Below are positions 38,395 to 62,738 of a stretch of DNA of 64,000 nucleotides, piece by piece; position 1 is the first letter of the stretch; every line of letters begins with the position of its first letter. Made by a program: the position numbers and the translations under genes. Under the pieces are notes generated by a model. The model did not search any database. It saw nothing but the letters and a program-made list of their open reading frames with translations, and had not been told where the DNA came from. The DNA lies in the IMG/VR virus record IMGVR_UViG_3300044710_000064, positions 5,060-69,059 of that record. One strand, given 5' to 3'. This stretch comes from a virus.

Positions 38395-38408
38395 GCTTTA
38401 ATAAACTC

Positions 38409-41460: not shown

Positions 41461-41625
41461 TTATCCTTTCACCGGAGCTGGCTTCAGGGCGGTAGGTTCC
41501 GCCGGTTTCACTTCGGGAGTTACCTGTATCCAGCCCTGAATCATCAAGGGGTGGAAGATCGCGGGATCGTCTTCGATCTCTTCCGGCTTAGCGTTGCCCG
41601 GAGGTTTCATCAGAATCTTTGCCAT
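41461..41625 (-). CDS. Small Pro-rich protein (54 aa)
   Basis: Manual translation MAKILMKPPG...LMIQGWIQV...KG; RBS GGAG. Confidence 0.55.
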   Translation of the reverse strand: MAKILMKPPGNAKPEEIEDDPAIFHPLMIQGWIQVTPEVKPAEPTALKPAPVKG

Positions 41626-41626
41626 G

Positions 41627-42112
41627 TCAGTTGTCTCCGTATTCAGGAAAAATGAAATTCGCTACGAAATAGTCGAGACCATCCTGGTCCTGGTGGTGAA
41701 CGATCGAGGGAAGCGGGTTTACGAGGTCCAACTCTCCGGGGATAAGTTGCACGCTGCGAATGTTGCCGGGCTCAAAGGCATTGCCGAGCGTTCCGTTGAT
41801 AATGAGCCACCAGAGATTCCCCGGCCCCGTTGGAGTGCTGGAGTTCGCGACGTTCCCGGATTTGATGTAGAGGTCGATTTGGTGCTTCCACCAGATGGTC
41901 CCGTTGAACGGGCCGCCCTGGCTTGCTTTCCAGACCACGAGAATCCCAGGCGTCGGAATTTCATAAATCTTTTTCGCAAGCGGAACATCGTCCCCACCTT
42001 CGAAAACAAAGGGAACGACGCGGGTTGGGTCATTGTTCAATGCCGCGACAAGGGATTCGATGGACTGAAGCGCCGTCGCAACGGTGTTTACGACCAACTC
42101 GGGATTGAGCAC
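41627..42112 (-). CDS. Putative tail terminator
   Basis: Position before the tube gene; TPGILVVW, HQIDLYI. Confidence 0.6.
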   Translation of the reverse strand: MLNPELVVNTVATALQSIESLVAALNNDPTRVVPFVFEGGDDVPLAKKIYEIPTPGILVVWKASQGGPFNGTIWWKHQIDLYIKSGNVANSSTPTGPGNLWWLIINGTLGNAFEPGNIRSVQLIPGELDLVNPLPSIVHHQDQDGLDYFVANFIFPEYGDN

Positions 42113-42113
42113 A

Positions 42114-42455
42114 TCAGTTCTTGCGGAGCTTCAAAGTCGCCGAGCCTTCAACGTCGATGTCGAGATCAAAGACGCTATACTGCACTGCGTTGATGACGAG
42201 CAAATCGCCCTTCTTGGGTTGCACGGTTAGATCGGCGAGGCGGATGAAGAATCGAACGACAGTGACGCCCGGTGGGAGACTGCCCGGAATGTAATCTTCA
42301 GCCAGGGCCGGATCTTCGAAGATTCCCGTGATGGGAATTCCGCCCCACAGCACGTTGTCCCCTGGCGTGGTCTGCGGGTAGTGCACGGCCGCGACTCCGA
42401 ACGTCGAGATACACAGCGTGTCGAGGTTGTCTACGAGAGTTTGGTACACGCTCAT
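42114..42455 (-). CDS. Head-tail joining protein (lambda FII-like)
   Basis: CISTFG..AVHY...ITGIFE...PKKGDLLVI...YSV.D...LKL. Confidence 0.75.
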   Translation of the reverse strand: MSVYQTLVDNLDTLCISTFGVAAVHYPQTTPGDNVLWGGIPITGIFEDPALAEDYIPGSLPPGVTVVRFFIRLADLTVQPKKGDLLVINAVQYSVFDLDIDVEGSATLKLRKN

Positions 42456-42463
42456 GTTATTCT
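42455..42463 (+). promoter_or_regulatory. Extended -10 promoter TG-T-TATTCT for the tRNA-like RNA
   Basis: 6 nt upstream of the first G of the outer stem. Confidence 0.55.
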
Positions 42464-42469
42464 GTGACT

Positions 42470-42561
42470 GGCGCGGAACAGACGTGGAAGAGGATGGCTT
42501 AATTCACGCATTTGCAAAAATGCGGCTCGTTGGTTCGAATCCAACCGTAGCGACCGCGCCA
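42470..42561 (+). ncRNA. tRNA-like RNA (tRNA-Cys-derived?) with 8-nt anticodon loop and interrupted acceptor stem
   Basis: T arm GTTGG-TTCGAAT-CCAAC; anticodon stem CGCAT/ATGCG with loop TTGCAAAA; D arm GAA/TTC with GG; outer stem GGCGCGG/CCGCGCC. Confidence 0.75.
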
Positions 42562-42562
42562 T

Positions 42563-42859
42563 TTAATTGCCCACGATCTTGAAATCGTTCTCGAAAATCT
42601 GCCCGCTGGTTCCGTTCGCTATCACTTTTCCCAGATACGTTTGCCCTGCCTCAATGCCCGAGACCATGATTTGCGAAGAGGTCGCGGTGTCCCCCTGATT
42701 ACTCAGGGTTGGGACCGGGGTGGTATCGAGCACGGGTTCGAGAGTCCAGATTGCCGGACCAACGATGGTGTCTGAAGTGTATTGCTGCTGGTAAGTGCGT
42801 TTTTCACCAGGATGCTGAGTCCAGTAATTCGAGGGACTCTGATTTGTGGACGGGGTCAC
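42563..42859 (-). CDS. Putative fibre adaptor (Ig-like) protein
   Basis: HPGEKRTY...QIMVSG..AGQTY...GQIFE.DFKI pattern. Confidence 0.55.
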   Translation of the reverse strand: MTPSTNQSPSNYWTQHPGEKRTYQQQYTSDTIVGPAIWTLEPVLDTTPVPTLSNQGDTATSSQIMVSGIEAGQTYLGKVIANGTSGQIFENDFKIVGN

Positions 42860-43236
42860 TGGCCGACCATCGTCCCCATGACCGTGGTTGAACTAGCGGA
42901 CCATTTAATACAGCCAGTGAATCGAATCGGCCCGCTCATGATGAGAGGATTCCCCGCAGTTCCGACCGCTGGGATGGTGGTCGCGTTCAGGAGCTTGAAT
43001 GGCGTTGCTTGGCAGTCCTGGATTGTCACGGTATGCACAGATGAATCCGTGTTTGAGATCACGATATTGTTCGTCGTGACGGAGCGATTCAGGTTCGGGA
43101 AGCTTGCGCCTTGATCTGGTGTCGGGATAGTAAGTGTCGGCGGTAATGCTGTACCCGCTACGGTCCAGCCGACGATTCCGGACAGGCTCGAAGCGATAAG
43201 GCTGCCGAGGATGAGAATCGATATAACCTTCAGCAT
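42856..43236 (-). CDS. Beta-sandwich protein with signal-like N-terminus
   Basis: MLKVISILILGSLIASSLSG; IVISNTDSS..TVTIQDC; GIRF-like IRFTGC; RBS GAGGGAG. Confidence 0.6.
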   Translation of the reverse strand: MLKVISILILGSLIASSLSGIVGWTVAGTALPPTLTIPTPDQGASFPNLNRSVTTNNIVISNTDSSVHTVTIQDCQATPFKLLNATTIPAVGTAGNPLIMSGPIRFTGCIKWSASSTTVMGTMVGQ

Positions 43237-43246
43237 CGCTCCCTCA

Positions 43247-43717
43247 TTAAGTGGTGATGACGCGGTACGCCATGATGCACTTCGCCGTTCCATTTCCTGC
43301 GGCGAAGACGGCACTCCCATTGGTGATGTCAATGCCGTCGGCGAGTGGCGGGGCGAAATTGGCGGTTGGGTCGAGATAGTAAAGGTACGTTCCCGGCGTG
43401 GCCTCGGTCACCACGCTAGCCGGCACGGTTGAGGCGAATGGGGCAATGGAAGTGTTGGTGTGGTACTGAAGATTGACCGTTCCGCCACCCGTGAAAGCCG
43501 CCGATCCCGCATACATGATGAATGCGAAGTAGACGGGGATTATCGCTTGGCCGGTGGGCGGGGCGGGGAATATCGTAATCGCCGTTGTATGCATCGATTC
43601 AAGTTGCGCGGCGGTGAGCGGGAAACTGAGGACCTTGAACGTTTCCTCGATGTGATAGTTCTGAGGCATGAACGACTTCGCGGGAACCCGCGGACTGTAA
43701 TCTTTGACGTAGCTCAT
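43247..43717 (-). CDS. Putative virion-associated beta-sandwich protein
   Basis: RBS AAGGAG; ITIFPAP..GQAIIP, FAAGNGT. Confidence 0.6.
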   Translation of the reverse strand: MSYVKDYSPRVPAKSFMPQNYHIEETFKVLSFPLTAAQLESMHTTAITIFPAPPTGQAIIPVYFAFIMYAGSAAFTGGGTVNLQYHTNTSIAPFASTVPASVVTEATPGTYLYYLDPTANFAPPLADGIDITNGSAVFAAGNGTAKCIMAYRVITT

Positions 43718-43729: not shown

Positions 43730-43999
43730 TTATTTCTTCTTCCGCTTCGGATGTTCGGGTTCTGGTTCCGGCGGCGCTTCGATGACAGGCGCTATCCGGC
43801 GTTGCTCATAGAACTGCCGCATACGGATTCGATTGTTACTCAGGCTTTGAGGGAGAGGACTTCCGGGTTCGTAAGTCTGCCCCTCCCAGAACAACGCGAG
43901 TCGGGTCACGACAAATTCCGGCTTGCCCCAGCGGATGAGTTTCTCCCACGGGACAAGCGAGTAAGGAATTCGAGTCGGAGTTTGAAGCGCGGTTGCCAT
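43730..43999 (-). CDS. Small head-region protein
   Basis: Coupled to the capsid gene; GQTYEPG; basic tail. Confidence 0.6.
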   Translation of the reverse strand: MATALQTPTRIPYSLVPWEKLIRWGKPEFVVTRLALFWEGQTYEPGSPLPQSLSNNRIRMRQFYEQRRIAPVIEAPPEPEPEHPKRKKK

Positions 44000-45012
44000 T
44001 AGGCGATCACGGAGCCGATGTATCCGCCGAGGTCGGCCGAGACTTGCTTGTGGGCATAGGCCGCATCCATCTCAACGCGAGTGGATTCGATCCAGGGCAT
44101 GTAGAAGGACTTGACACGGGTTCCTTGGGTGCTGGCACCGAAATATCCGGACCAGGCGAAGGTGTATCCGCATCCGGGTGTCATGATGCCGGGAGCGCTG
44201 GGGGTATAGACCAGAAGCATGGCCTTGTTGCCGATGAAGGCGTTCGTTTCGAGATTGGTCGAAACGCCGGGAGCCTGCGGGGCCTGCTCCACCGAAGTGT
44301 TCTGGATGGCATCCATCACTAGAACTTCGTCAAGCTCGAAAAGTGACGCCATGACAGCCAGTGTTACTTTGGCCGGCTGCGGAGCGGTTTGACCGTACTT
44401 TACGCGGTCAACAAAATCTGGATGATCACAGAGAGTGTCAAATACCGGGCGCCCGAGAATCATTTTGTTTGGCCGGAAAGTCCCCGTCAATTGAACTGTT
44501 CTCTTTAAATTTCTGACGTCAATAATCGGCGTCGATGCAGGATCATTCCACTGAAGGACCTGAGTTGAAGACGGACCGCTGGAGACGCCAGTCCAGTTAT
44601 TTGTCCAGACGGCGCCGAAGAACTTACTTGCCCAATCAACTTCGCGCGAGATTCGCGCCTGCATCGAAAGAAAAGAAGTAGTTTCAAGATCTGGCTGAAG
44701 GACACTATCCGAATTGGCGCGTACCTGATCCGGAATGTCTTTGTGAAGGCTCCACACGTCGCACAGATAGGACCCGCTGTTATCGAGGTTGTATCCGGAA
44801 CCCGCAGATTCCGCGCCGGGTGCACGCTTCTTCATTTGGTTGCGATTGAAGTCGCCGCGGTTATAGGTGTAGTACACGTCCGAAATCTTTTGGACGGGCA
44901 CGATGGGAAACACGCGCTCAGCCACGAACGCTGAAGCTTCCTGCAAATACATGTTCGACAGGTTCGTGAGCGGCACATTGACATGGACATCAGAGAGTGT
45001 CGGTTGGGGCAT
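43999..45012 (-). CDS. Major capsid protein (gpE-like family)
   Basis: LTNLS..Y...FVAERVFPIVPV, QWNDPASTPIIDV, RPNKMILG, LCDHP. Confidence 0.88.
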   Translation of the reverse strand: MPQPTLSDVHVNVPLTNLSNMYLQEASAFVAERVFPIVPVQKISDVYYTYNRGDFNRNQMKKRAPGAESAGSGYNLDNSGSYLCDVWSLHKDIPDQVRANSDSVLQPDLETTSFLSMQARISREVDWASKFFGAVWTNNWTGVSSGPSSTQVLQWNDPASTPIIDVRNLKRTVQLTGTFRPNKMILGRPVFDTLCDHPDFVDRVKYGQTAPQPAKVTLAVMASLFELDEVLVMDAIQNTSVEQAPQAPGVSTNLETNAFIGNKAMLLVYTPSAPGIMTPGCGYTFAWSGYFGASTQGTRVKSFYMPWIESTRVEMDAAYAHKQVSADLGGYIGSVIA

Positions 45013-45463: not shown

Positions 45464-46231
45464 CTAGTATTGGGTCTTCATGTAGCTAGTGGTTAATTCT
45501 GAACCCAATCCCATTGAGCCCATGCGCTGCGAGAGAGCGGCAAGATATGCCTTTTTTTGCTTGGAAGCTGACATCATTTCCGGCCGTTCATCAAGATAGG
45601 CCTCGTATAGGCCGGGGTTCGCTTTGAGCAATTGAGCGTATGCCTCGGCCTTCGAGAGCCTGCCGCCGGAATTCAGCGCCAATGTCTGAGCCTGAAGTTC
45701 CATCTTGTCGAGAGCGGAGACTGCTCCTATCGCAACTCCGAAATTGGCACCCACGGGATTCTTCTCGGATTCAGCAGAGCGTAATTTAAGTAGCTCGGCT
45801 TGGACCCTCGTCGCGGAGAAGTCTTTACCGATAAATTCGGCTGCGAGATTTGGGAAACCAGCGAGGGTGCACAGATTGGCAATGAGTTGCGTCTCAGCCT
45901 TCACGGCCTTCTTGGCGTCTTCCTTCTTTTTCTCGTCGTCTTCGTTGTCTTCGTCATCATCCTCGTCGTCGTCCTCGGGTTCGGTCTTGGTGGCGGCCAT
46001 GGCCTTCTTTCCCTTCTTGGTCTTCTTCGACTTTTCCTTGCCGTCCTCTTCGGGTGCCGCGGCTCCGCAATTCGAGCAAAACTTATCAGCCGAGTGCATG
46101 GAATCGCCGCACGAGTCGCAGGTCATTGTGTCCCCGTCATCGGCCCTAATCCCTGTGGCAACTGCTTGTGGTTGGGTAGCGACGGTCGCTCCGGTTACGG
46201 CAGCGATCGCCAAGTCATCATTCTTAGGCAT
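45464..46231 (-). CDS. Nested scaffolding protein (Nu3-like) from an internal start
   Basis: AAGGAGG-N5-ATG in frame within the protease gene. Confidence 0.6.
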   Translation of the reverse strand: MPKNDDLAIAAVTGATVATQPQAVATGIRADDGDTMTCDSCGDSMHSADKFCSNCGAAAPEEDGKEKSKKTKKGKKAMAATKTEPEDDDEDDDEDNEDDEKKKEDAKKAVKAETQLIANLCTLAGFPNLAAEFIGKDFSATRVQAELLKLRSAESEKNPVGANFGVAIGAVSALDKMELQAQTLALNSGGRLSKAEAYAQLLKANPGLYEAYLDERPEMMSASKQKKAYLAALSQRMGSMGLGSELTTSYMKTQY

Positions 46232-47164
46232 AATGCCCTCCTTGTTTTCTGCGGCGATCGCCGCGGGAAGTTGTGAAACTGATTTAGCTGAAAACATTCC
46301 TGAGCCAGGCGCTACCTTCTGGGTGATTGCGTTGAGCGCGTCTTCGAAGGTTCCGACTTCATCACCTAAGCCGACATCCACCGCGCCTTGGGCGAAGTAC
46401 ACAGCAGCCTCGGTATCGCGGATGGCTTGCGGTTTAACGTTGCGGTTCCGCGCGACGGCTTCCACGAACATTTCGTATTCGCGGTCTACTTCCGTTTGAG
46501 CGTCGGACTTGGCGGTTTTACCCAGCGGTTCATGGGGATTACCGTCCACTTTCTTTTTCCCTGCGTGGATATAAGTGAAGGCGAGACCTGCTTTGTCATC
46601 CAAGCGCGATTGGTCGACGTGCAGAGCAAAGACCCCGATGGAACCAAGTGCCCCGGTCCGGGTTACGAACACTTTGTCAGCCGCACTCGCGATGGCATAG
46701 GCTGCCGACATGGCTCCGTCGTTTGCGATTGCGTAAATAGGTTTTTCGCCACGGAGGGAATAGATGAGATCGTTCAAGTCGAACATTCCGTGCGTTTCTC
46801 CGCCGGGCGAGTCGACGTCGAGCAATACTCCTCGTACAGTTGAATCCCCGCACGCATCGCTCACCTGCCGGGAGATTCTTTCGTAGGTGCTGTTTCCGCT
46901 CATAGCCCAAAGTCCGCTCGCTTTTTTCATCAGCGTCCCTTGGATGGGGATAACAGCAATGCCTTCGTCAGTGACTTTGTAGGATTTTCGGTCTGAAGGT
47001 TCCGACCAATCCCCCGCCATCAAGCCGAATTCTTTGACATTCTCTGCATTCCAATCGAGATTGAGCCGGGGCCCAATGCCATGCAGGATGGCTTCGAGCT
47101 TTTCCGGACGAATAGCCAGGGGCGTATCGAAGATCCGGGATTGCAGATGGGTGAGGAATTTCAT
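45464..47164 (-). CDS. S49 head maturation protease (lambda gpC-like) with C-terminal scaffold
   Basis: IAVIPIQGTL, LLDVDSPGG, AMSAAYAIASAA, GSIGV, AGKKKVDGNP. Confidence 0.92.
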   Translation of the reverse strand: MKFLTHLQSRIFDTPLAIRPEKLEAILHGIGPRLNLDWNAENVKEFGLMAGDWSEPSDRKSYKVTDEGIAVIPIQGTLMKKASGLWAMSGNSTYERISRQVSDACGDSTVRGVLLDVDSPGGETHGMFDLNDLIYSLRGEKPIYAIANDGAMSAAYAIASAADKVFVTRTGALGSIGVFALHVDQSRLDDKAGLAFTYIHAGKKKVDGNPHEPLGKTAKSDAQTEVDREYEMFVEAVARNRNVKPQAIRDTEAAVYFAQGAVDVGLGDEVGTFEDALNAITQKVAPGSGMFSAKSVSQLPAAIAAENKEGIMPKNDDLAIAAVTGATVATQPQAVATGIRADDGDTMTCDSCGDSMHSADKFCSNCGAAAPEEDGKEKSKKTKKGKKAMAATKTEPEDDDEDDDEDNEDDEKKKEDAKKAVKAETQLIANLCTLAGFPNLAAEFIGKDFSATRVQAELLKLRSAESEKNPVGANFGVAIGAVSALDKMELQAQTLALNSGGRLSKAEAYAQLLKANPGLYEAYLDERPEMMSASKQKKAYLAALSQRMGSMGLGSELTTSYMKTQY

Positions 47165-47415
47165 TGAACTCCGATTCCCCGTTGTCGTTCGTGCCAGAGC
47201 GGCCATTGATAGCGATGCGTACCCCAAATGACCGTAACTACTGGCGGGATATTCAGCTGTTGGCCTTCCGAAGTCCGCTGAATTCGGAGCCCGCAATTGA
47301 TCTTTCTACTCAAGCGCAATGTCGCCTGAATGTAGATTCGAGAGTCTATTTCCCATTCGTATCGGGCGATGGCCAGAACGAGGCTAAAGTCCCAAATGTT
47401 CAGCACTAGCTTCAT
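47161..47415 (-). CDS. Hypothetical protein inserted between portal and protease
   Basis: ATGA overlaps at both ends; CAATGAA duplicated. Confidence 0.55.
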   Translation of the reverse strand: MKLVLNIWDFSLVLAIARYEWEIDSRIYIQATLRLSRKINCGLRIQRTSEGQQLNIPPVVTVIWGTHRYQWPLWHERQRGIGVQ

Positions 47416-49055
47416 TGCGGCCTCTCGGTAATCGGTTCTCCGTGGATTGAAGGAGCAAGCGCATTGGTCGCCGCTTCTTCTTCGCTGTCCTGTGTGGGAG
47501 CGGCAGTAGTCGGAGTCTCGGGCTGAGTCTCGCGGCCGATCAGCACCTTGTTCGGATCGCTGTCATAGATGGTTCCGAGGTCAGCCGCACGTTGACGCTC
47601 TACCGCTTGCTCGTTGTCCACCGTCTCAGGATCAAGACCGGATTCTCTGACCACGCGGGCACGGGAAGTAAATCCGCACCGGACGCTTGTTTGTGCTGCC
47701 TGGACTTCTTTCAGCGGATCGACCCACTGCCAGCCAGGTGAGACCCATTCGCAGTTCTCGAAGTCATAGGGATTATCAAAGTAGGCATTTCCGAGTTTCA
47801 AGGCTCCCGAGAGCACCGCTTCTTTCATCCACCGCTGTTTTACTGGCTCGCAGAATTGATGAACGATGACGTTGTACTGAAACTGCTCGCAGGCCCGCCG
47901 GAATTCGAGAAGCCCGGCCCGGATTGAGGAGTAGTTGACGCCTCCCAGATCCATAGTGACCTGCTCGTAGGTCATGTTTATGCCGGCGGCGAATTTGTGG
48001 GCTTGCGTGCTTATGAAGCTTGAGAAGTCCCCCGCCTGGGGCAACGAGGGAAACGTGATTCCCTCGCCGGGGAATAACTGCTGCATGGTTCCCGGTTCGA
48101 GTTTGATTACATTGGTGCCGATATCTTGCTGTGGAACGAACGGCGGATTCAGCGGATCTTCCAGGCCGGGCGAAGTTGGATAGTTGGGCGCCGGAGTCAT
48201 GACCTGATCTTCGGGAGCTGGCTTAGTGATGAACCCGGCGAACATGGCAGCTACTTTCTTGCGCACTAACTCGGCGTCAGAATATTGTTCGAGCTCGTAG
48301 AGGAGAGCGAGCACGGCGGTCATGTGCGGCTCGCCCCGGAGTTGTCCGATCCGAAGAGGCTTATAGATGTGGCGGATTTCCTCCGCCGGAATCTCGACAT
48401 ACTGAAGTCCCGACAACGGATAGAACATTGTTTCGCCGGGATGCTCTTTATAGAAGTGGTAAGCGACCCTTCTTCCGTCCGAATCGAATTCGATTCCGCA
48501 CCGGACCATGTTCTTGAAATCGCCGGGGAGAATATTCAGGAAGACCGGTAACTGCTCGCCTTCCATCAACTGAAGTTGCAGAGGAATGAAGAGCCGATCT
48601 TTTGCCGGTCTCAACCGATACCGGCTGAATACTTCGCCACCTTCGAAGATTTCCCTCGCCGCTAAAGCCTGGAGTCCGTAGAAATCAGATTGTCCCGACC
48701 AATCGGCTTGCCTCGTCCATTGCGCCCAGGCCTGTTGGATCTTGACTCGCACATTCGGATCAGGATGCTGCCAGTGCGGTTGAATTCCCGACCCGATGAC
48801 ATTCGATTCAAACTTGTCAATTGCGCTTCTCGCCCACGGGTTATTCCGGACCGCATCCCGGCTTCTCGACCGAAGCTGATCGAGGTTTCCCCATAAGAGG
48901 GTTGAAGGGCCGAGGCGAGTGGTGTACCAGCCCTGGGCCCTTCTTCCTGTACCACCAGCGTCGTAAGGGTACGCCGAAGCCCGTCTCTTAAGAATGGGTG
49001 GAGGCTCGTGACCCGATTGGCGGTACAACGTCAGAAATGATTCGATTTGAGGCAC
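47412..49055 (-). CDS. Portal protein, lambda family
   Basis: LRSRSRDAVRNNPWA, GIEFD..GRRVAYH, GQLRGEP, VNYSSIRAGLLE, WVDPLKE. Confidence 0.95.
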   Translation of the reverse strand: MPQIESFLTLYRQSGHEPPPILKRRASAYPYDAGGTGRRAQGWYTTRLGPSTLLWGNLDQLRSRSRDAVRNNPWARSAIDKFESNVIGSGIQPHWQHPDPNVRVKIQQAWAQWTRQADWSGQSDFYGLQALAAREIFEGGEVFSRYRLRPAKDRLFIPLQLQLMEGEQLPVFLNILPGDFKNMVRCGIEFDSDGRRVAYHFYKEHPGETMFYPLSGLQYVEIPAEEIRHIYKPLRIGQLRGEPHMTAVLALLYELEQYSDAELVRKKVAAMFAGFITKPAPEDQVMTPAPNYPTSPGLEDPLNPPFVPQQDIGTNVIKLEPGTMQQLFPGEGITFPSLPQAGDFSSFISTQAHKFAAGINMTYEQVTMDLGGVNYSSIRAGLLEFRRACEQFQYNVIVHQFCEPVKQRWMKEAVLSGALKLGNAYFDNPYDFENCEWVSPGWQWVDPLKEVQAAQTSVRCGFTSRARVVRESGLDPETVDNEQAVERQRAADLGTIYDSDPNKVLIGRETQPETPTTAAPTQDSEEEAATNALAPSIHGEPITERPQ

Positions 49056-49166: not shown

Positions 49167-49403
49167 ATGTCTGTGAAGATCACGCGATATTCAAGCCCGG
49201 CGGACATGCGCAAAGCCGCACACCGAATTGCCCTTCAGCAAGAAACGTTTCTATTGGAAATGGCACAAGCCATCAAAGAATGGCGCAAGGAAGAGCCGGA
49301 GTCTGAGGCAGCCATGGAGATCGAGGACGCGACAATATCTGCATTGAAGACTTGCCGGGAGCTGAAAAAAGTCAGCGCTTCCAAATTCACCCGGCTAAAA
49401 TAA
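49167..49403 (+). CDS. Antisense moron, hypothetical protein
   Basis: TATACT (49156-61)-N5-ATG. Confidence 0.55.
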   Translation: MSVKITRYSSPADMRKAAHRIALQQETFLLEMAQAIKEWRKEEPESEAAMEIEDATISALKTCRELKKVSASKFTRLK

Positions 49404-49407
49404 ACTG

Positions 49408-49620
49408 TCAATTTCCAAAACCTTTATCGGTGTACACTCGAAGTTGGCGGCAGGGTATCGTGCCATTTGCTGCCGCGACTTCGACAACTGCGAGTGCGCG
49501 CGCTTTCAGCAAGTCATCCATGGAGCGATAGGTGACGTCACGATTCTGGAAGCGGACTCGCGTTACGCCGGACTTGATGGCCGTGTCGAGGGCATCGATA
49601 TCAGCTTGTGACCAGGCCAT
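49408..49620 (-). CDS. gpW-like head-tail joining protein
   Basis: IDALDTAIKSGVTRVRFQNRDVTYRSMDDL. Confidence 0.88.
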   Translation of the reverse strand: MAWSQADIDALDTAIKSGVTRVRFQNRDVTYRSMDDLLKARALAVVEVAAANGTIPCRQLRVYTDKGFGN

Positions 49621-49799
49621 GGTGCGTTATTCGGCGTACCGATAGAACCGAAAGCATCCCCAGTCATGGGACTTCCAATCTGCGGCTTGATACGAATCGA
49701 CCTGGTGCCATTTGCGCCAGTCGCGCAGAATCGCGAATCCGAACCGCCCGAGCCTACAGGGTCCAACCAGGAAAAACATGCTTGCCAAACTCGTGGAAT

Positions 49800-51701
49800 T
49801 CAAATCTCAAACCTCGCCCTGATCGGTCGCTGTGGCTGAGCCTGCCGGGGTGGTGCGGGAGTATTCGCTATCCGAGCCTTCATCGCTTCCGCCCGGCCTT
49901 CCAGTTCTCGCCACTGCTCATCTTTGAATCGGTCCAACCCCACCACGTAAGCGGCCGCCCGTGCATAGATCCTACAATCGAGCGCTTCGTTACGCGGCCT
50001 GGTCTTCTGCCACTCTGGTTTCGGAAAACCCTTCTCGTACCGGGTCACCAATTGCTCGGCAGTTAGCTGCTGGAAGAACTCGGCGTCGTACGGCGGAAAA
50101 TGACAGAACCCTGGTGGATAGATCTCGCCCCTGTCCAATTCCTCGTCGGTCGGCATGCTCAACATCAGCCATCCGTAAAGCTCCGACTTCAGCAATCCTG
50201 TAGCGACGGGCCATATCTTTAGACCGTTTGCAATTCGTTTCCCGCCAATGGTGACGTCCACGGGCTTTGGATGAGCGACAGGTATATTGCCGCGAGGGCG
50301 CCCGTCAACCGCGATTGCCCTGCCGCCCTGAGCCCGGACCCAAGCGTAAACGTCATTCGTGGCATATCCGCTATCAACGGCCATCTTCGCGATAGGAAGT
50401 TGCAGGCCAGACTCATGAGGAAAGGTCTCATTGAGCAGGACCGCAAGCCTTCGCCAGACCTCCGGCTGTTGAGGATTCCCGTCCAAAACCCTGTAATCGA
50501 TCGACCATGATTCTTTCCCGCGTCCCCAGGCCACGATCTCGGCTTGGAGGTAGGTCTTTTGAACGTCCACTCCCGCAGTAAGAAACAAGCCATTCCACGG
50601 AACGTTACCCCGTTCATACCGCTCTCGTCGAGCTCTTTCGTACAAGAGTTCATCCGCCGGCGCCTCGCCTTTGCCGGTCCAGTTTTCGGCTAGCGACGTA
50701 TTGACGAAGGTTTGCAGGTCTCCCGGATTGTCCTTCTTTGAAAGGAAGTCTAGAACGATGTCCCGAAGCATTTTCCAGGGGCTGTAAAGCTCCGAAATCC
50801 AGAACCCTGCTACGCCGGCAAAGACCGCTTGGGCTCTCCACTCGCACTTCTCTACGGCTGCCCAACGTTCGGCATCGTCCCAGCCGGCATCGCAAAATTC
50901 GCAATGATAGAGAGCCGTCGCCGCTCGTTGCTCGAAGCTCAGGCTTTTGGAATTGTCCCAGCGGACCTGGCTTTCGAACTTCCGCATCAGGGATTGAAAC
51001 GCCCCGCAATGCGGACACGGCACGAAGCATTCCCGCTGATCCGATTGTTCGTAGGCCCGATCGATCTCCGACGCCAAGAATGTGGGGGAGCATGTCAGAA
51101 CTTCCTTCGCCCGGTGACGAAAGGTTGCCAGTCGTTTTCTGGCAAGGGCCAGCGGGTTGCCTTCCAAGGTCGGTTTGTACTTGTCGATCTCGTCGGCAAA
51201 CAGAAAACGGATGGCCCGCCTGGCCACGTTCCGCGGCGAGCCCGTGCCGGCGATCGCCAGCAATCCCCCGGGAAACAACTTCTCCGTAATGGTGCTGTCT
51301 GAGCTCCGGGTCTTCGATTCCGAGAAGAGGCCCCGTAAAACTGGGGTATCCCGGATCATGGGTGCGATTCGTTCCTTCGAGAAGTCTTTGGCGTCGGTAT
51401 CCCCCGGCTGCAGGAGAAGCATGGGGCCCGGATCTTGATGGGCGAAATACCCGATGGCGTTCTCGATTGTGACCGATTTCAGCATCTGGGTGGCTGATTT
51501 GATCACCACCCGGCGGACGCGAGGATCCGAAACCGCGTCCATGGGTTCCCGCTGAAAGGCTAAGGTCGTCCAAGGTCCTGGTTTGGCAGAGGCTTCCGGG
51601 CTCAGATGACGATACCGGTTCGCCCATTCCGACATGGTGAGAACCGGCGGCGGCGCCCAAAGCCGGCGCAATCGCTGTTCGAGCACTTCCCTGGAGATCA
51701 T
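49800..51701 (-). CDS. terL: Terminase large subunit (GpA family)
   Basis: SEWANRYR, KSATQMLKS, LFADEID, CSPT, VPCPHCG, TAGVDVQ, AVDSG, RNEALDC. Confidence 0.96.
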   Translation of the reverse strand: MISREVLEQRLRRLWAPPPVLTMSEWANRYRHLSPEASAKPGPWTTLAFQREPMDAVSDPRVRRVVIKSATQMLKSVTIENAIGYFAHQDPGPMLLLQPGDTDAKDFSKERIAPMIRDTPVLRGLFSESKTRSSDSTITEKLFPGGLLAIAGTGSPRNVARRAIRFLFADEIDKYKPTLEGNPLALARKRLATFRHRAKEVLTCSPTFLASEIDRAYEQSDQRECFVPCPHCGAFQSLMRKFESQVRWDNSKSLSFEQRAATALYHCEFCDAGWDDAERWAAVEKCEWRAQAVFAGVAGFWISELYSPWKMLRDIVLDFLSKKDNPGDLQTFVNTSLAENWTGKGEAPADELLYERARRERYERGNVPWNGLFLTAGVDVQKTYLQAEIVAWGRGKESWSIDYRVLDGNPQQPEVWRRLAVLLNETFPHESGLQLPIAKMAVDSGYATNDVYAWVRAQGGRAIAVDGRPRGNIPVAHPKPVDVTIGGKRIANGLKIWPVATGLLKSELYGWLMLSMPTDEELDRGEIYPPGFCHFPPYDAEFFQQLTAEQLVTRYEKGFPKPEWQKTRPRNEALDCRIYARAAAYVVGLDRFKDEQWRELEGRAEAMKARIANTPAPPRQAQPQRPIRARFEI

Positions 51702-52216
51702 GCCGCATTCGTTTCACTCAACGCGCTCAATGCTTTCCGGACTTCATTGTCGATAATGGCCTGACATTCCAGGACGGAGGTGATAACAGCAACCCGCGGC
51801 GCCACTTCGTTCGCGAGCAGGAGAAGCCGGCCGCGCGCCGAACTGATCATGTTTGCGATGAGCTTTTCGACTTCAGCGACCAGCATTACCTCACCCTTCC
51901 GTTTGGCGAGGTCAAGCTCCTTCTCGAGAACCTTGAGCCATTGGGTTCGGCGGGTAGCTTCGTAGAGAGATTCCGGATCCGCTTTCGAGGAACTCTTACC
52001 GGGACCCTTCCGGAGCTTCTCAGCCGGCTGGACCGCCGGTTTGGGTTCGACCGAAGGGCGCCGCTGCCGATGATCGACGTTCACATCCCAGACGGCTCTC
52101 ACCTTCTCCAGGTCGAAACTGCCGTCCGGTTCTCGTGGAATCCGACCCTTCCGAGCAGCCTTATTGATGGCCGTGTGGGAAACCCCGAGCTCGGCGCCAA
52201 TCTCTCGGGAGGTCAT
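51698..52216 (-). CDS. terS: Terminase small subunit (Nu1-like)
   Basis: N-terminal HTH (IGAELGVSHTAINKA); ELDLAKRKGEV; overlaps terL start. Confidence 0.85.
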   Translation of the reverse strand: MTSREIGAELGVSHTAINKAARKGRIPREPDGSFDLEKVRAVWDVNVDHRQRRPSVEPKPAVQPAEKLRKGPGKSSSKADPESLYEATRRTQWLKVLEKELDLAKRKGEVMLVAEVEKLIANMISSARGRLLLLANEVAPRVAVITSVLECQAIIDNEVRKALSALSETNAA

Positions 52217-52223
52217 GACAGGC

Positions 52224-52331
52224 GGTTTCCAAGGTTTCCAGCCAAACTGGAAACCCGGTTTCCAAGCATGTAGCTGACGGGGTTCCGCAAACATTTTACC
52301 TGCCTGCAGGGGAGGGCCAGGGGAAGGACCC
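52224..52331 (-). other. Putative cos region (cosQ-like GGGTCCT, cosN-like dyad, cosB-like repeats)
   Basis: GGGTCCT at 52331-52325; GCAGGCA-N7-TGTTTGC imperfect dyad; four TGGAAACC copies (one inverted) at 52224-52264. Confidence 0.65.
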
Positions 52332-52349
52332 GAAAACAATAGGAAGGCC

Positions 52350-54449
52350 TCATAAAGCGTTCAGTATCCTGGCCGACCCGTCAACGCTGACAAAGGATCG
52401 GGAGCCGTCCACAATCGCGAGACAGCGTATTGAGCAGTCAACCGGCACAAGCATTCGAATCGGCCCTGTGCCCGTACCGGTGAATTGCGCGTAGATCCAG
52501 TTCGCCAAGCCCTGGAGCGTATCCGCGATAGCGCTTAGTGTCCGCGAAACCATGCGATAAACTGATGCCGGCTGGCTTGGAAGTTGCCCGGGTGTGCTCC
52601 TTGACGTCGCCCTGGCTATGGTGACGCTGCCGATAAGTAGGCTTGCGGTGAAGGAGAGCACATAGGCGCCAGACCGAGCGATCGCAGCGATGCCGTTGAA
52701 ACTAATCGTCGTAGCAGACGCTGCCAGGCCAGTAAGCCTTGCGCTTGCTCCGCCGAACAACGGGTGCGATCCGCTTGTCGCATGCACCGTAGATTTTGCG
52801 GTCGAACCTGCTTGCCCCGCGGTCGCTCCCAAGGCAGTTCGGTCAGTCGCGCCGGCTCGCTGTGCGCCGAACAATCCGGCGGCCGAAGCCGAAGACCTGC
52901 TGCCCGATCGAGTGACGTTCCCACCTGCCGCTAATGTTGAACTAGAATTAGACCTATCGGTACCTCGCAGAGTGGTGGCGGCGAATGCAGCAAGCGAGGC
53001 TCCGAGGCTCAGAATGTAAAGTGATCCTCCCTTAATGGCTACAAGAGCGCCAGAAAAGGCAGACTCAACGGCCGCAATCGCATGAGACGTCAGCTTACTC
53101 ACTCCACCCATTAGTGATGCGCTCGAAGCTACGCCTGACCGAGAGGTTTGAGTTCCCCGCGATCCCATCATTTGAACCGTTGCAGACGAGATCGCGTGGC
53201 TTATGAATCGTATGAATGAGCCAAAGAATGAACCAGAAAGTGCGGCTTCGCTTCGGCCAGTCTGTTTGGAAGCTGTCACTTGGAACGATCCAGTTGATGC
53301 AGGAGTGGTCTTCGCCATTGCTTGCGAATCGATTGCGCTCATGTCTGCCATTGAAGCCGGCCGAGTTTCTAACATCACTCGGGATGTGATTCCGCTGGGT
53401 GTCGTGGTGTTCCCACTCGAAGACCTAGACTCACTGCGCAAAGTGCTCGCTGCTAGCGCCAAGACCGAAGCCGCGACCGTAAATGTATAGGTGACTGCAG
53501 TCTTAGCCACCGTTAAAACCGCATTGAAGGCGTTGGCCACTGCGGCAACACCATGGGATGTGACGCGATTTGTCGAGGTAGCAAAAGAACTAGCCGCCGC
53601 AGTCACGGTATGGGCGACCGCTGAGCCGCGCGCGCCAGCGAACAAACTGGACGCCGCAGACGCAACGAAGCCAGTCATCTTGGATAAATTTGCACCCGCC
53701 GTTAGTGTCGCGGCGGTAGCAACATTGCCCACCGATTTTACGATACCGGCGGCGAAAGCAGCGCTTGACGTGGCCATGCTAACCAAGCCAGCCGTCTTGC
53801 TGCTAATTGCGGCCATCATCGCCGTTGCTGCGGTTTGAAAAAATGAGATCAGCTTGAAACTGGTCGCGCCAAATAGCGAAGTTTTGCTCGTGTTGCTATG
53901 GCTGGTAGCGAAACCGCCGAGAACGGCACGAATAGCGATCGTCGCGGCCTGGGCAACATTCCCGGTCGACCTCAAGATGTTGGCACCGAACATTCCATTG
54001 GAGGCCGCGCTCACAACTCCTGTGGTTTTCGTGCCAATTGCGGCCATCGTCGGCGCTGCAGCCGTTTCGAATAGCGACGTCAATTTGGCCCCGACTGCGC
54101 CGAACAATGAGGTGCCGCTCGCTGCGTTGTGGCTCGTGGAAAACCCGCCAAGATGGGCAATGCCGGCGGCTGCACTTGCATTTCCCGATCGGCCTGTCAG
54201 TTTTAGCCAGGCTGCCGCGCATGTCGATTGGATTGCCGTCAAAGCGCGCGCGGTGAAGCGCGTTGAAGTTGCTGATGGGGCGAGCGCCCTAGCCGTTTTT
54301 GAGGATGAGGTATTCGCCAACCTAGCAGCATTCAGATTCTGCGCACTCGCGGAAGCCGACAGGTAATAAGCTGAGCCTGTAAGCTTTAGGCCGGATTCAA
54401 TGATCGGATTCCCACGAACTCTGCGAGCTTGGTAAATACGGCCGATCAT
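52350..54449 (-). CDS. Ala/Ser/Thr-rich repetitive fibre-like protein
   Basis: 699 aa with short periodic repeats and larger internal duplications. Confidence 0.65.
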   Translation of the reverse strand: MIGRIYQARRVRGNPIIESGLKLTGSAYYLSASASAQNLNAARLANTSSSKTARALAPSATSTRFTARALTAIQSTCAAAWLKLTGRSGNASAAAGIAHLGGFSTSHNAASGTSLFGAVGAKLTSLFETAAAPTMAAIGTKTTGVVSAASNGMFGANILRSTGNVAQAATIAIRAVLGGFATSHSNTSKTSLFGATSFKLISFFQTAATAMMAAISSKTAGLVSMATSSAAFAAGIVKSVGNVATAATLTAGANLSKMTGFVASAASSLFAGARGSAVAHTVTAAASSFATSTNRVTSHGVAAVANAFNAVLTVAKTAVTYTFTVAASVLALAASTLRSESRSSSGNTTTPSGITSRVMLETRPASMADMSAIDSQAMAKTTPASTGSFQVTASKQTGRSEAALSGSFFGSFIRFISHAISSATVQMMGSRGTQTSRSGVASSASLMGGVSKLTSHAIAAVESAFSGALVAIKGGSLYILSLGASLAAFAATTLRGTDRSNSSSTLAAGGNVTRSGSRSSASAAGLFGAQRAGATDRTALGATAGQAGSTAKSTVHATSGSHPLFGGASARLTGLAASATTISFNGIAAIARSGAYVLSFTASLLIGSVTIARATSRSTPGQLPSQPASVYRMVSRTLSAIADTLQGLANWIYAQFTGTGTGPIRMLVPVDCSIRCLAIVDGSRSFVSVDGSARILNAL

Positions 54450-54451
54450 GG

Positions 54452-56101: not shown

Positions 56102-56102
56102 T

Positions 56103-57245
56103 TTACTCGGAAATGTTCTTGATTTCCAGCCAGCGGAACGTGACGTTGATCGTTCCGCCCGTAAGCGCCGCGTTGCCGAGATTCACGCAAACACCTTGAC
56201 CGGTTCCGATCAGTATCTGGGGTTTCAATCGCCCATTCCAAATGAAAAGATCATCAGGAACCGTGGAGGCAGAAACCAAAAATGCTGTATATGCTTGATG
56301 AATTGTGCCGACTGAAGCGCCGGCGGTCGGCCCCGTTCCCGTGTAGCTGACCGGCGTTGTGCTTGCGGCCGCGTAGTTGGTTACATCCCCGCGGACCGCA
56401 GTCATGTTGGCGGAAGTTCCGCCACTTTCCGCAGCGGAGTGCCGGATAAGCTGCACATTGACTAAGCCAGCAGTCGTCTGAATCCCGCTGACATCTGCCT
56501 CGTAGAGGAGTACGGTGTTGGTTGAATTGCCATAAATGCAGGCGTTGTCCGTGGTACTGGATGCCGCGAAATTGGCGCTGGCTTCGTAACTCGCCGGTCG
56601 AAGCCCTGGGATCAAGCTGGTCCAAAGCGTACCATCCGTTCCCACATTGAGCGCGGCATCCCGGCCTTGAGTTTCTGCCGAGCCATTGGACGGATCGGTT
56701 TGGATAATGCCGGGGAGTTCTCCGAGGCGATTAGTTCCCGCCGCCGCGCCGTTGTTCGAAAGTGCGCCATTCACGTTGGGAGTATTGGCCACCGTGACCG
56801 GCAGGGCAACTGCATAACAGACGCAGGTCGCGTAGGGCGTCACATTTGCGGTGCCCGTGATAGCTGTCGTCAACTTCAAAACGAGCTTGTAAGCGCCCGC
56901 CATGTAAATCAGAAATTGCTTGTTCGTCGATGCCTGCAAAGTGTAGGGCATCGAGACTTGAGCATATGTCGAACTCGTCGGATCGACGACCTGCCACGCT
57001 TGCAGGTTTACGAGGTTTCCGTCTCCTGGATCAGCTTGAAACTGAATCGCGCCGCCTGTTAGCGTCGTCGTCTGATCGAGGGTTACCAGCACGTGAGTGC
57101 CGGATGCCGCCTGGGCGAGTGTTTGCGTGGTGTTATTGGAGGTCGACGATGTCCAAACTGCTCCCGTATAGGGCGTGTTGCCGCACCCGGAAGCTTGCGC
57201 AAAGACAACCGAAGCGCCGAGCAAAATGAGAACGAGCAGCTTCAC
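56103..57245 (-). CDS. Beta-sandwich virion-like protein with Sec signal peptide
   Basis: MKLLVLILLGASVVFA-Q; C-terminal TFRWLE. Confidence 0.65.
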   Translation of the reverse strand: MKLLVLILLGASVVFAQASGCGNTPYTGAVWTSSTSNNTTQTLAQAASGTHVLVTLDQTTTLTGGAIQFQADPGDGNLVNLQAWQVVDPTSSTYAQVSMPYTLQASTNKQFLIYMAGAYKLVLKLTTAITGTANVTPYATCVCYAVALPVTVANTPNVNGALSNNGAAAGTNRLGELPGIIQTDPSNGSAETQGRDAALNVGTDGTLWTSLIPGLRPASYEASANFAASSTTDNACIYGNSTNTVLLYEADVSGIQTTAGLVNVQLIRHSAAESGGTSANMTAVRGDVTNYAAASTTPVSYTGTGPTAGASVGTIHQAYTAFLVSASTVPDDLFIWNGRLKPQILIGTGQGVCVNLGNAALTGGTINVTFRWLEIKNISE

Positions 57246-57246
57246 C

Positions 57247-57741: not shown

Positions 57742-57765
57742 CGAATCGAGATCAACGCTGTAAAA

Positions 57766-59931: not shown

Positions 59932-59947
59932 GCGCCCGGACTGGTTC

Positions 59948-60880: not shown

Positions 60881-60934
60881 AGTTCGCTCCTTTGAACGCT
60901 GAACGGTGGAAATGTTTGTGGAAAAAGAGGAAAA

Positions 60935-61171: not shown

Positions 61172-61177
61172 TTGGAT

Positions 61178-61762: not shown

Positions 61763-61764
61763 GG

Positions 61765-62082: not shown

Positions 62083-62110
62083 GATGATTACTCCTTTTGG
62101 TTAGCTGTGA

Positions 62111-62620: not shown

Positions 62621-62681
62621 CAGATTTGGGGAAACGAGCCTAAGAGGGAGGCTAGGAAGGAATGTGTGGGCTGTCGGGATT

Positions 62682-62711: not shown

Positions 62712-62714
62712 TAT

Positions 62715-62730: not shown

Positions 62731-62738
62731 GTTTGTGA

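Follow-up and report, generated by a model that had tools for sequence, protein, structure and literature searches.

The window analyzed here is a stretch of 64,000 nucleotides from an IMG/VR virus record (IMGVR_UViG_3300044710_000064, positions 5,060 to 69,059). A tightly packed, lambda-like head-tail operon occupies the minus strand of this region, with genes for the MCP, an S49 protease and a lambda-type portal located upstream of the element under study. The only sizeable gap in the operon spans 107 nucleotides between an FII-like head-tail attachment gene and a 98-aa ORFan, whose sole match among 5.8 billion clusters is itself. Within this gap, on the opposite strand to the head-tail genes, resides a tRNA-derived element of 92 nucleotides (42470-42561). 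The original prediction of a tRNA-derived cloverleaf hidden antisense to these genes is borne out by the sequence and by its alignment to the Rfam tRNA model (RF00005). The relevant features are as follows.

8944-9023, minus strand: second tRNA-like site, probably an attP (Rfam tRNA, 31.6 bits)
42114-42455, minus strand: FII-like head-tail attachment gene (Phage_attach; Pfam PF05354, E 5e-9; PHROG head closure Hc1)
42455-42463, plus strand: extended -10-like motif TGTTATTCT, a putative promoter judged from sequence
42470-42476, plus strand: GGCGCGG, 5′ strand of the outer stem, equal to the 5′ strand of the tRNA-Cys acceptor (pair probabilities 0.99-1.0)
42477-42484, plus strand: 5′ spacer AACAGACG, comprising the AACAG loop strand and ACG; absent from canonical tRNA
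42485-42506, plus strand: U8-G9 (TG), D arm (GAAG / loop AGGATGGCTTA / ATTC) and A26, from the cmscan alignment to RF00005
42507-42524, plus strand: anticodon arm CGCAT / TTGCAAAA / ATGCG, from the sequence and the RF00005 alignment
42525-42545, plus strand: variable loop GCTC (4 nucleotides) and T arm GTTGG / TTCGAAT / CCAAC, from the RF00005 alignment
42546-42553, plus strand: 3′ spacer CGTAGCGA, comprising CGT and the AGCGA loop strand; absent from canonical tRNA
42554-42561, plus strand: CCGCGCC (42554-42560), 3′ strand of the outer stem and of the tRNA-Cys acceptor, followed by A at the discriminator position
42562-42569, plus strand: T-rich tail TTTAATTG, perhaps a weak termination signal, which shares bases with the minus-strand stop codon (TAA) of the 98-aa gene
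42563-42859, minus strand: 98-aa ORFan (weak Pfam Gp77 adaptor match, E 0.0018)

The nucleotides that form the tertiary core of a tRNA are present in this element. The cmscan alignment to RF00005 places A14, G15, G18G19 and A21 in the D-arm region, U8 precedes the D arm, and the C of the variable loop makes the G15-C48 pair that corresponds to the R15-Y48 contact. The T-loop conforms to TTCRANY, and U33 is also kept. All pairs in the helices (7+3+3+5+5) are Watson-Crick; apart from the usual 13-22 G-A, they include neither mismatches nor G-U pairs. The 4-nucleotide variable loop and the perfect T arm described in the original prediction are therefore present, as is the GCA anticodon (42514-42516), which is carried within a loop of eight nucleotides (42512-42519).

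The element does not conform to the canonical tRNA layout, in which nothing separates a 7-bp acceptor from position 8 or from the T stem and the anticodon loop has seven nucleotides. It matches RF00005 with a score of 20.3 bits (E 0.095) over model positions 5-66 only, and does not reach the gathering cut-off of 29. ARAGORN run with its defaults calls no tRNA in the window, and only at an 80% threshold does it report the element as ‘tRNA-???’ with the four-base anticodon gcaa. Thus, the expectation that tRNA finders would return a pseudogene or no call has held. The tRNA model matches just two sites in the whole 69-kb record, the element being one of these. ARAGORN finds no tmRNA, and there is no Rfam tmRNA match at the element site. 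A Logan contig, which is a second assembly from the probable source run, agrees at every position across 42300-42720, at a depth of ~10; it derives from the same reads and so is not independent data.

The tRNA-like site on the minus strand at 8944-9023 provides information about the host. Its 3′ 53 nucleotides are 98% identical to tRNA-Ala(GGC) of nine Acidobacteriota genomes, the 5′ third of the tRNA copy has diverged, and an integrase gene (6759-7982) lies near it. A long block of identity to the 3′ portion of a host tRNA, next to an integrase, suggests that this site is probably the attP of the phage. Because these 53 nucleotides match tRNA-Ala(GGC) from Acidobacteriota, the site points to that phylum as the host of what is a temperate soil phage. 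Identification of a host phylum from the phage's own attP is a practical result of the analysis.

The outer stem of the element is likewise informative. GGCGCGG/CCGCGCC is identical to the acceptor stem, the 5′ strand being positions 1-7, in each of the 10 tRNA-Cys(GCA) genes compared from Acidobacteriota (L112-L116, L118-L121 and L124; 9 of 9 without the one unpublished genome, G318). The element therefore carries both the GCA anticodon and the acceptor stem seen in tRNA-Cys of the host phylum. The original prediction assigned the acceptor only 3 bp and regarded the outer helix as an extra stem. An abnormal acceptor region is indeed present, but that partition is not upheld, since the outer 7-bp stem is the tRNA-Cys acceptor of the host phylum, letter for letter. 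Consequently, the anomaly, as judged by sequence comparison, is the pair of 8-nucleotide spacers, one on each strand, that separates a complete tRNA-Cys acceptor from an intact core. On the same grounds, we read the element as a tRNA-Cys that has its full acceptor helix and an intact core. When 151 host-order genomes were scanned with a model of the element, tRNA-Cys accounted for 5 of the 12 fetched loci, including the four best-scoring.

The bare acceptor pattern is not specific, because GGCGCGG...CCGCGCC pairs are frequent in the GC-rich host genomes (20-59 per genome versus 13-43 for a reversed control). The arrangement as a whole exceeds what chance would give. Within the window, a perfect stem of at least 7 bp flanks a 67-nucleotide segment at 1.1% of random positions, and at 0.18% of random positions if near-symmetric spacers are also required. 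Furthermore, the anticodon stem of the element differs completely from that of host tRNA-Cys, and therefore the loop is the only part of the host anticodon arm that it could mimic.

Several features separate the element from a tRNA-Cys that could be charged and used. U73 and GCA are described as the main identity elements for CysRS (PMC7609411, PMC5389517). Host genes carry T at the discriminator position followed by an encoded CCA, whereas the element has A at 42561 followed by TTT. These changes, together with the 8-nucleotide spacers on both strands and the 8-nucleotide anticodon loop, lead us to judge that decoding has been lost, given tRNA geometry and the rules of CysRS recognition. The element probably cannot work in translation, because its amino-acid end would be held off the body by the extra bases.

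It is highly improbable that the element is nevertheless a working decoder, either as a cysteine tRNA or as a tRNA that promotes +1 frameshifting by using its enlarged anticodon loop. The GCA in an 8-nucleotide loop, the four-base anticodon read by ARAGORN under relaxed settings, and the intact acceptor helix and core would be consistent with such a function, and non-canonical tRNAs can be active according to the account in PMC5389517. In addition to the altered 3′ end and the displacement of the acceptor by eight nucleotides on both strands, the sub-threshold Rfam score argues against this proposal. There is also no open +1 junction upstream of the tape-measure gene, where a stop at 38398-38400 closes the frame, and Mukai et al. 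describe an E-loop tRNA that remained uncharged in vitro (PMC5389517). The frameshift-type tRNA offered in the original prediction thus finds no support. The element is either a tRNA look-alike with some other job or a broken gene.

Structure predictions differ between the two strands. The plus-strand RNA folds better than shuffled sequences (z = -2.83), with only 1 of 200 shuffles folding as well, while the minus-strand RNA is unexceptional (z = -0.92; 38 of 200). The plus strand is thus the structured strand, which counts in favor of a tRNA mimic. The fold is less certain in its interior. Ensemble probabilities are ~0.04 for the ACG/CGT pairs (the CGT at 42546-42548) that make up the inner helix of 3 bp, and the D stem is likewise below 0.1; the ‘5x5 loop’ therefore may not form as drawn. 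The textbook cloverleaf lies 4.7-7.7 kcal/mol above the MFE. The anticodon arm can alternatively be drawn with 7 bp closing a GCAA tetraloop, and pair probabilities in this extended stem are 0.84-0.88. The region of the variable loop and T arm (42525-42545) has pair probabilities of 0.59-0.94.

This asymmetry bears on the proposal that the locus acts on the late operon itself, either as an mRNA element for processing, stability or translation placed before the FII-like gene, or as an interfering plus-strand transcript or promoter. Its position makes such a role conceivable: the element lies 14 nucleotides upstream of the FII-like start codon, and this gene is without the AAGGAG-type ribosome site found before other non-overlapping genes. 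A NusG-like factor encoded by the phage, identified by Pfam scan, suggests regulated read-through, and since all stems are Watson-Crick, equivalent helices can arise in the complementary strand. However, the minus-strand RNA is no better folded than shuffles, the T-loop, the D-loop GG and U33-GCA-A37 are tRNA-like on the plus strand only, and no such element is present at the corresponding junction in relatives. We therefore regard this explanation as unlikely.

The original prediction also held that the RNA is self-promoted. An extended -10-like motif is present, with its last base 6 nucleotides ahead of G42470; the motif also shares sequence with the ATG of the FII-like gene (42453-42455, minus strand). 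Motifs of the form TGnTAnnnT occur at 0.25 per kb per strand. However, a generic -35/-10 scan of 41500-43500 finds no promoter, so that the motif stands while its promoter function remains putative. A terminator scan called none at the T-rich tail. A search of sequencing runs returned one matching DNA run, probably the source, and no RNA run was listed.

Compared with the syntenic relatives L003, L005 and L006, in which the neighboring genes are 18-32 nucleotides apart, the element and the 98-aa ORFan are both extra, and together they resemble an insertion of ~400 bp. No homologue of the element was found in 83 related loci, five related phage records or 151 host-order genomes, and therefore covariation and conservation lend it no support. 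These related loci were MCP relatives with identities of no more than 68%, of which 36 were viral, 7 genomic and 40 metagenomic. In none of the 83 did ARAGORN call a tRNA, blastn and nhmmer searches for the element gave no match in the 36 viral loci, and an Rfam scan of the five closest loci returned nothing. A single-sequence covariance model run on related loci scored no higher than 13.4 bits outside the element itself. Near and distant BLAST searches of INPHARED left the 3.5-kb region unmatched, with only 21-29-nucleotide T-arm matches to the element. Exact and degenerate DNA patterns searched in IMG/VR yielded either none or one chance match within a coding region (L038), one element pattern yielded none in JGI metagenomes, and the FII-like and 98-aa proteins used as IMG/VR probes recovered no relatives.

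A looser pattern in IMG/VR (tRNA-Cys acceptor, T-loop, 7-16 nucleotides, acceptor) recovered 50 stretches, five of which scored at E <= 1 with the model. Candidate L142 is an ordinary tRNA-Thr, and L133 reached 15.8 bits only. L147, L151 and L168 are unrelated phage contigs with tRNA-like RNAs and have no protein similarity to this phage; L151 and L168 gave an identical aligned sequence and score. When built on the same seven outer pairs, the acceptor helix of all three comes out at 10 bp (manual pairing and Rfam run). Features shared by these three are no evidence of homology, because the search pattern itself selected them. With the outer stem recognized as the true acceptor, the search target becomes acceptor, then spacer, then tRNA core.

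An orphan of this kind could be a dead gene, that is, a once-functional phage copy of tRNA-Cys that acquired the spacers and the loop A by insertion, lost U73 and CCA, and now persists without function because it has not yet been deleted. We consider this the main rival reading and a real possibility, albeit a doubtful one. In addition to the lack of conserved relatives and of a promoter in the generic scan, several of its features would each disable a tRNA. The extra anticodon-loop A falls within an A-run, as is typical of slippage damage, which also counts against a purposeful mimic. The same phage carries a second, partly degenerate tRNA copy in its attP, and an allo-tRNA pseudogene is reported from an acidobacterium (PMC5389517). 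However, there are zero disruptive changes among ~40 stem nucleotides, and the bases that make tertiary contacts are all intact. Two 8-nucleotide insertions at mirror positions are hard to obtain from one random event, and the plus-strand fold beats 199 of 200 shuffles. Moreover, useless DNA is purged from phage genomes, yet the element takes up the operon's single large gap. Neutral decay is disfavored because every helix is intact while at least three changes fall in unpaired regions, which agrees with the original argument that simple random decay fits poorly.

It is very unlikely that the element acts at the level of DNA, whether as a second site for attachment or recombination or as a scar left when the 98-aa ORFan was brought in. 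The phage does use a tRNA-derived site as its probable attP, and the insertion-like character of the element and ORFan would be in keeping with such an event. However, identity with host tRNA-Cys is limited to the 7-nucleotide acceptor strands and short loop motifs, whereas the attP shares 53 nucleotides at 98%. Only short T-arm matches to the element occur in five candidate host genomes, the integrase is ~35 kb away, and no flanking direct repeats are seen.

The explanation we tentatively consider best is that the element specifies a non-decoding mimic of tRNA-Cys, derived from a tRNA-Cys(GCA) and carried by the phage. Two independent tRNA-Cys hallmarks appear to support this view, namely GCA in a UUGCAAA-type loop and an outer stem identical to the acceptor. 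The placement also seems to favor it, with the one large gap in the operon, a TGnTAnnnT motif correctly spaced from G1, and a T-rich tail after the stem. Counting against the mimic are the weak promoter, represented by a 9-nucleotide motif, the uncertain fold, the limited anticodon mimicry, the lack of a homologue and the lack of a partner; a partner protein or tRNA-related enzyme is absent among the top families listed by Pfam scans of the phage.

If the element is such a mimic, its own weak promoter would most likely yield a stable small RNA of ~92-100 nucleotides from the plus strand, and the element would behave much like a moron within the late operon. The RNA, presumably uncharged, would resemble tRNA-Cys closely enough to serve as a decoy or sponge for a factor that recognizes tRNA-Cys or the tRNA shape. 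Candidate targets include a VapC-type anticodon nuclease, another tRNA-directed defense, or a tRNA-processing or -modifying enzyme. VapC4 is described as a tRNA-Cys-specific anticodon nuclease (PMC13657306). In its most specific form, which we put forward only as speculation, this proposal envisions a purpose-built tRNA-Cys decoy with a private promoter inside the late operon of a temperate phage of soil Acidobacteria. The complete acceptor helix and perfect core would be joined through a purine-rich spacer module that excludes the synthetase and the ribosome, and a tRNA-Cys-directed nuclease, whether VapC-like or another defense effector, may be bound by the enlarged anticodon loop without consuming the decoy.

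New in this analysis are the inference of an Acidobacteriota host, the recognition of the outer stem as a tRNA-Cys acceptor, the departures from that tRNA, the uniqueness of the element and its strand asymmetry. The phage tRNAs known to counter tRNA-cleaving host defenses are working tRNAs. An RNA that offers every recognition surface of tRNA-Cys and yet is structurally kept out of translation would qualify as a pure mimic, and the decoy reading, if true, would define a new class of RNA anti-defense or anti-toxin element. If the element is merely a damaged gene, it still documents the breakage of phage tRNA genes.

The architecture can be compared with those of several known RNAs. Suppressor tRNAs of the sufD/sufJ type, which act by +1 frameshifting, have an 8-nucleotide anticodon loop on a tRNA with a normal, chargeable acceptor arm. 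The element has the extra loop base in common with them and lacks such an acceptor. The ends of YrlA RNA leave from the anticodon-stem position rather than the acceptor, and so its topology differs from the acceptor-ended, tRNA-like layout of the element.

The original prediction nevertheless raised a Y-RNA-like adaptor of the YrlA type that tethers an Ro/Rsr protein. YrlA (RF02553) is a modular RNA in which a tRNA-like domain is combined with a loop-interrupted terminal stem, and the element, with its own terminal stem and internal loop, gives a weak match to it. This match scores 15.1 bits (E 2.6), far below the cut-off of 69, and its alignment extends outside the element. Furthermore, the element has a full anticodon arm, and no TROVE/Rsr family is among the top Pfam families listed for 78 ORFs or in 20 scanned singly. 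This adaptor function is thus unsupported, and we give it next to no credence. The attP of the same phage resembles the element in being tRNA-derived, in residing in a temperate phage and in lying antisense to neighboring genes. It differs in that it is a long block of near-identity to tRNA-Ala near the integrase, whereas the element has no such block and resides in the head-tail module.

The element also resembles Acidobacteriota tRNA-Cys(GCA), with which it shares the 7-bp acceptor, GCA in a YUGCAAA loop, the T-loop, the D-loop GG, U8, A14 and a short variable loop; it differs by its spacers, its 8-nucleotide loop, A73, the lack of CCA, and other anticodon- and D-stem sequences. Defense-evading phage tRNAs, as described in PMC10264068 and PMC11555353, are similarly phage-encoded, have altered anticodon loops and occur where hosts have tRNA nucleases. 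However, these are functional decoders that replace cleaved host tRNAs, whereas the element is not plausibly chargeable or able to fit the ribosome.

Irregular tRNAs from Acidobacteria (allo-tRNA, E-loop and five-stem-junction forms; PMC5389517, PMC7609411) share with the element a tRNA-derived nature and an Acidobacteria-linked soil origin. They are described as transcribed and apparently non-translational RNAs from Acidobacteria-rich soils, in some of which an extra, unpaired loop adjoins the acceptor, while some have a link to toxin-antitoxin loci (PMC5389517); regulatory or toxin-antitoxin-linked roles have been proposed for them (PMC5389517, PMC7609411). Compared by published description only, they have a 12-bp acceptor branch of 8/4 or 9/3 type and a long variable arm (PMC5389517), whereas the element combines 7 bp and its spacers with a T stem of 5 bp and a 4-nucleotide variable loop. 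On the same basis, E-loop forms place an extra loop between the acceptor and D stem, a possible counterpart of the 8-nucleotide 5′ spacer in the element; the element additionally has an insertion on the 3′ side and is borne by a phage. If the mimic reading is true, the element would be linked to these unexplained RNAs and would give them a function.

Direct reading of the plus-strand sequence at 42470-42561 (92 nt) bears out the description in the original prediction of a tRNA-like element with a three-pair acceptor, a 5x5 internal loop and a seven-pair outer stem. As expected, ARAGORN finds no tRNA in the window under its default settings; with the threshold relaxed to 80%, the element is returned as ‘tRNA-???’ with a four-base anticodon, gcaa. 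The Rfam tRNA model scores 20.3 bits, under its 29-bit cut-off, and matches through model positions 5-66 only, which correspond to the tRNA body plus three acceptor pairs. Besides U8, A14, G15 paired with C48, G18G19 and A21, the aligned part of the element shows a canonical T arm, an anticodon stem of 5 bp and a variable loop of 4 nt. Its eight-base anticodon loop, TTGCAAAA, can alternatively be drawn as a GCAA tetraloop closed by two further U-A pairs. An assembly error in the A-run, raised at the outset as a possible explanation, is unlikely because the probable source run, when assembled a second time (depth ~10, from the same reads), gives an identical sequence over 42300-42720.

The Rfam tRNA model yields one further match over the whole record, on the minus strand at 8944-9023 (31.6 bits), ~1 kb downstream of a tyrosine integrase gene (6759-7982). 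This site is matched in 122 of 301 sampled Acidobacteriota genomes (E <= 1e-3), and nine Acidobacteriota genomes show 98% identity over exactly its 3′ 53 nt, from the anticodon stem to CCA. ARAGORN calls tRNA-Ala(GGC) at all five of the 98% loci that were checked, and alignment to these genes reveals near-identity from the anticodon stem onward with a diverged 5′ third (D region). Phage attP sites classically carry the 3′ portion of a tRNA gene from the host, as this site does, and it is probably attP. This marks the phage as temperate, with an acidobacterium very probably as its host, and both assignments are independent of the unpublished genomes in the sample. The site itself is not called by ARAGORN, and it overlaps a plus-strand 81-aa ORF (8935-9180) that is doubtful as a gene. 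Five genomes (G131, G107, G166, G247 and G217) carry two or three copies of the 3′ tRNA-Ala(GGC) segment 1.5-19 kb apart on one contig, which suggests other integrated elements at the same attachment site.

Ten acidobacterial tRNA-Cys(GCA) genes were compared with the element, five from candidate host genomes and five from a scan of 151 same-order genomes with the element’s covariance model, in which tRNA-Cys made up five of the 12 loci fetched, including the four top-scoring matches. All ten carry the acceptor stem GGCGCGG/CCGCGCC, then T73 and a CCA that is part of the gene (9/9 without the unpublished genome G318), and the outer stem of the element consists of these same seven pairs. Therefore, the abnormal acceptor region and 8-nt loop originally proposed are present, but the supposed extra stem is really the tRNA-Cys acceptor, and the element comprises a complete acceptor helix and an intact core set apart by two 8-nt spacers, AACAGACG on the 5′ side and CGTAGCGA on the 3′ side. 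Its anticodon loop shares UGCAAA with those of the acidobacterial genes, such that, judged by sequence, acceptor and anticodon are two independent tRNA-Cys hallmarks. Unlike these genes, the element has one additional A in the anticodon loop, A instead of U73 and no CCA, and it differs in its anticodon stem, D stem and variable loop. Because BLAST against five candidate host genomes returned only short T-arm matches to other tRNAs, and the stems and variable loop differ, the element is neither an att site for the host gene nor recently copied from it. Identity with host tRNA-Cys does not extend beyond the 7-nt acceptor strands and short loop motifs, and any att or scar role is highly improbable.

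The window covers 5060-69059 in an IMG/VR virus record of 69 kb, whose completeness is estimated at ~90%. Simple ORF calling places plus-strand genes at 76-19534 and minus-strand genes at 19417-63974, the latter including the structural module that holds the element.

Genes of the structural module (window coordinates)
47412-49055, minus strand: lambda-type portal
45464-47296, minus strand: S49 protease
Minus strand, listed between the protease and the major capsid protein: scaffold-like gene
43999-45012, minus strand: major capsid protein
42563-42859, minus strand: 98-aa ORFan, among the small genes of the module
42114-42455, minus strand: Phage_attach/FII-like head-tail gene, flanking the element

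Most nearby genes overlap or lie a few bases apart, but 42456-42562 is a gap of 107 nt. The 98-aa protein is a strict ORFan, matching only itself among 5.8 billion protein clusters, with a weak likeness to a podophage fiber-tail adaptor (Gp77, E 0.0018). The leader of the FII-like gene (42456-42480, minus strand) lacks the AAGGAG-type ribosome-binding site present before the major capsid gene and the genes at 45053, 40038 and 39193, and the plus-strand -10-like motif sits where this site would be. Within 49235-63974 (minus strand), NusG/KOW-like and LuxR/sigma-70-region-4-like proteins adjoin a gpA-type terminase, a hint that the phage controls antitermination of its long late operon. In the same region, several large proteins (310-721 aa) match no Pfam family.

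For random 67-nt segments of the window taken with 20 nt on each side, a perfect stem of at least 7 bp joins the two flanks at 1.1% of positions, or at 0.18% if near-symmetric spacers are required. The plus-strand 92-nt RNA is predicted to fold at -34.7 kcal/mol (z = -2.83), with one of 200 shuffles as good, versus -27.4 kcal/mol for its complement (38/200), and modeling thus identifies plus as the structured strand. Action in cis or as an antisense regulator of the late operon would suit an element located 14 nt upstream of a gene without its neighbors’ AAGGAG site, but is unlikely given the unremarkable minus-strand fold (z = -0.92). In the predicted ensemble, the outer stem (pair probabilities 0.99-1.0), anticodon hairpin (~0.85) and T arm (~0.93) are robust, whereas the inner ACG/CGT helix (~0.04) and D stem (~0.08) are weak, and the minimum free energy is 4.7-7.7 kcal/mol below that of the textbook cloverleaf. 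D arms of genuine tRNAs are frequently predicted badly. The ‘3-bp acceptor plus 5x5 loop’ is best viewed as one possible drawing of the modeled RNA rather than as fact.

INPHARED contains no close relative of this phage, and the best major-capsid relatives (36 IMG/VR, 7 genome and 40 metagenome loci) do not exceed 68% identity. Across these 83 loci there is no ARAGORN tRNA and no match to the element’s covariance model (best non-self 13.4 bits, E = 5, versus 124.5 bits for self), and five related virus records searched whole lack the element. In three syntenic loci (L003, L005 and L006), a homolog of the 158-aa gene is followed by 18-32 nt and then the FII-like gene; compared with these loci, this phage carries ~400 bp more, made up of the ORFan plus the element. 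In the closest relative, L002, the corresponding place is a gap of 106 nt with neither tRNA signal nor similarity to the element. Conservation and covariation therefore decide neither for nor against a function. A loose pattern also retrieved tRNA-like RNAs from three unrelated IMG/VR contigs (L147:4877-4967, L151:372-473 and L168:2184-2285) that ARAGORN does not call; their acceptor helices, read by eye, have 10 pairs on the same outer GGCGCGG/CCGCGCC, although the pattern itself selected for those features. L147 may have an 8-nt loop, and L151 and L168 carry a 33-nt insertion in the anticodon region (Rfam tRNA 31.6 bits).

Decoding requires the acceptor end to be stacked on the T arm, so that it is held a fixed distance away from the anticodon, and the spacers would either lengthen this arm by eight layers or uncouple it. 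Because this distance would be upset, and because the main CysRS determinants are U73 and GCA (excerpts of PMC7609411 and PMC5389517), decoding by the element is very unlikely. The frameshift-type tRNA once proposed finds no +1 frame junction upstream of the tape-measure gene, leaving any decoding role scarcely credible. A Y-RNA-like adaptor fares worst (YrlA 15.1 versus a cut-off of 69), and no TROVE, Thg1-like, RNA-ligase or CCA-enzyme family is among the top families, the only ones listed by the alignment-mode Pfam scans of the phage ORFs. Like att or scar roles, these two readings are rated low because features specific to each class are missing.

A damaged tRNA-Cys gene is a strong rival, if somewhat less likely than the reading preferred below. 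The element is an orphan, its additional A lies within a homopolymer run, a generic scan calls neither promoter nor terminator, and the attP copy in the same phage demonstrates that tRNA-derived sequence can drift. However, all 23 drawn pairs are Watson-Crick and all tertiary-contact bases are intact, with at least three changes, in unpaired regions. The two 8-nt insertions occupy mirror positions, which would not be the product of one simple event, making neutral decay an awkward fit. The earlier argument that intact arms speak against simple decay therefore stands, whereas the putative promoter invoked with it is not called by the generic scan.

We tentatively prefer to view the element as a small non-decoding tRNA-Cys mimic, given that decoding is very unlikely, decay is awkward and the plus strand is structured, and given a TGnTAnnnT motif (0.25 per kb per strand) ending 6 nt before G42470 and a T-rich tail 3′ of the outer stem. 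Such an RNA would be transcribed alone, in moron-like fashion and with its own ends, and might serve as a decoy or sponge for a tRNA-recognizing factor. Non-canonical tRNAs, phage tRNAs and tRNA pseudogenes are already known. The literature searched, including passages of PMC7609411 and PMC5389517, yielded no description of a true acceptor helix joined to a true core via symmetric spacers in a phage late operon, of which the element is a single instance. Anticodon nucleases specific for tRNA-Cys, such as VapC4, exist (PMC13657306), and phage tRNAs counter tRNA-targeting defenses (PMC10264068, PMC11555353). Irregular, transcribed and apparently non-translational tRNAs occur in acidobacterial soils, and some of these carry an extra loop beside the acceptor stem or are linked to toxin-antitoxin loci (excerpts of PMC5389517).
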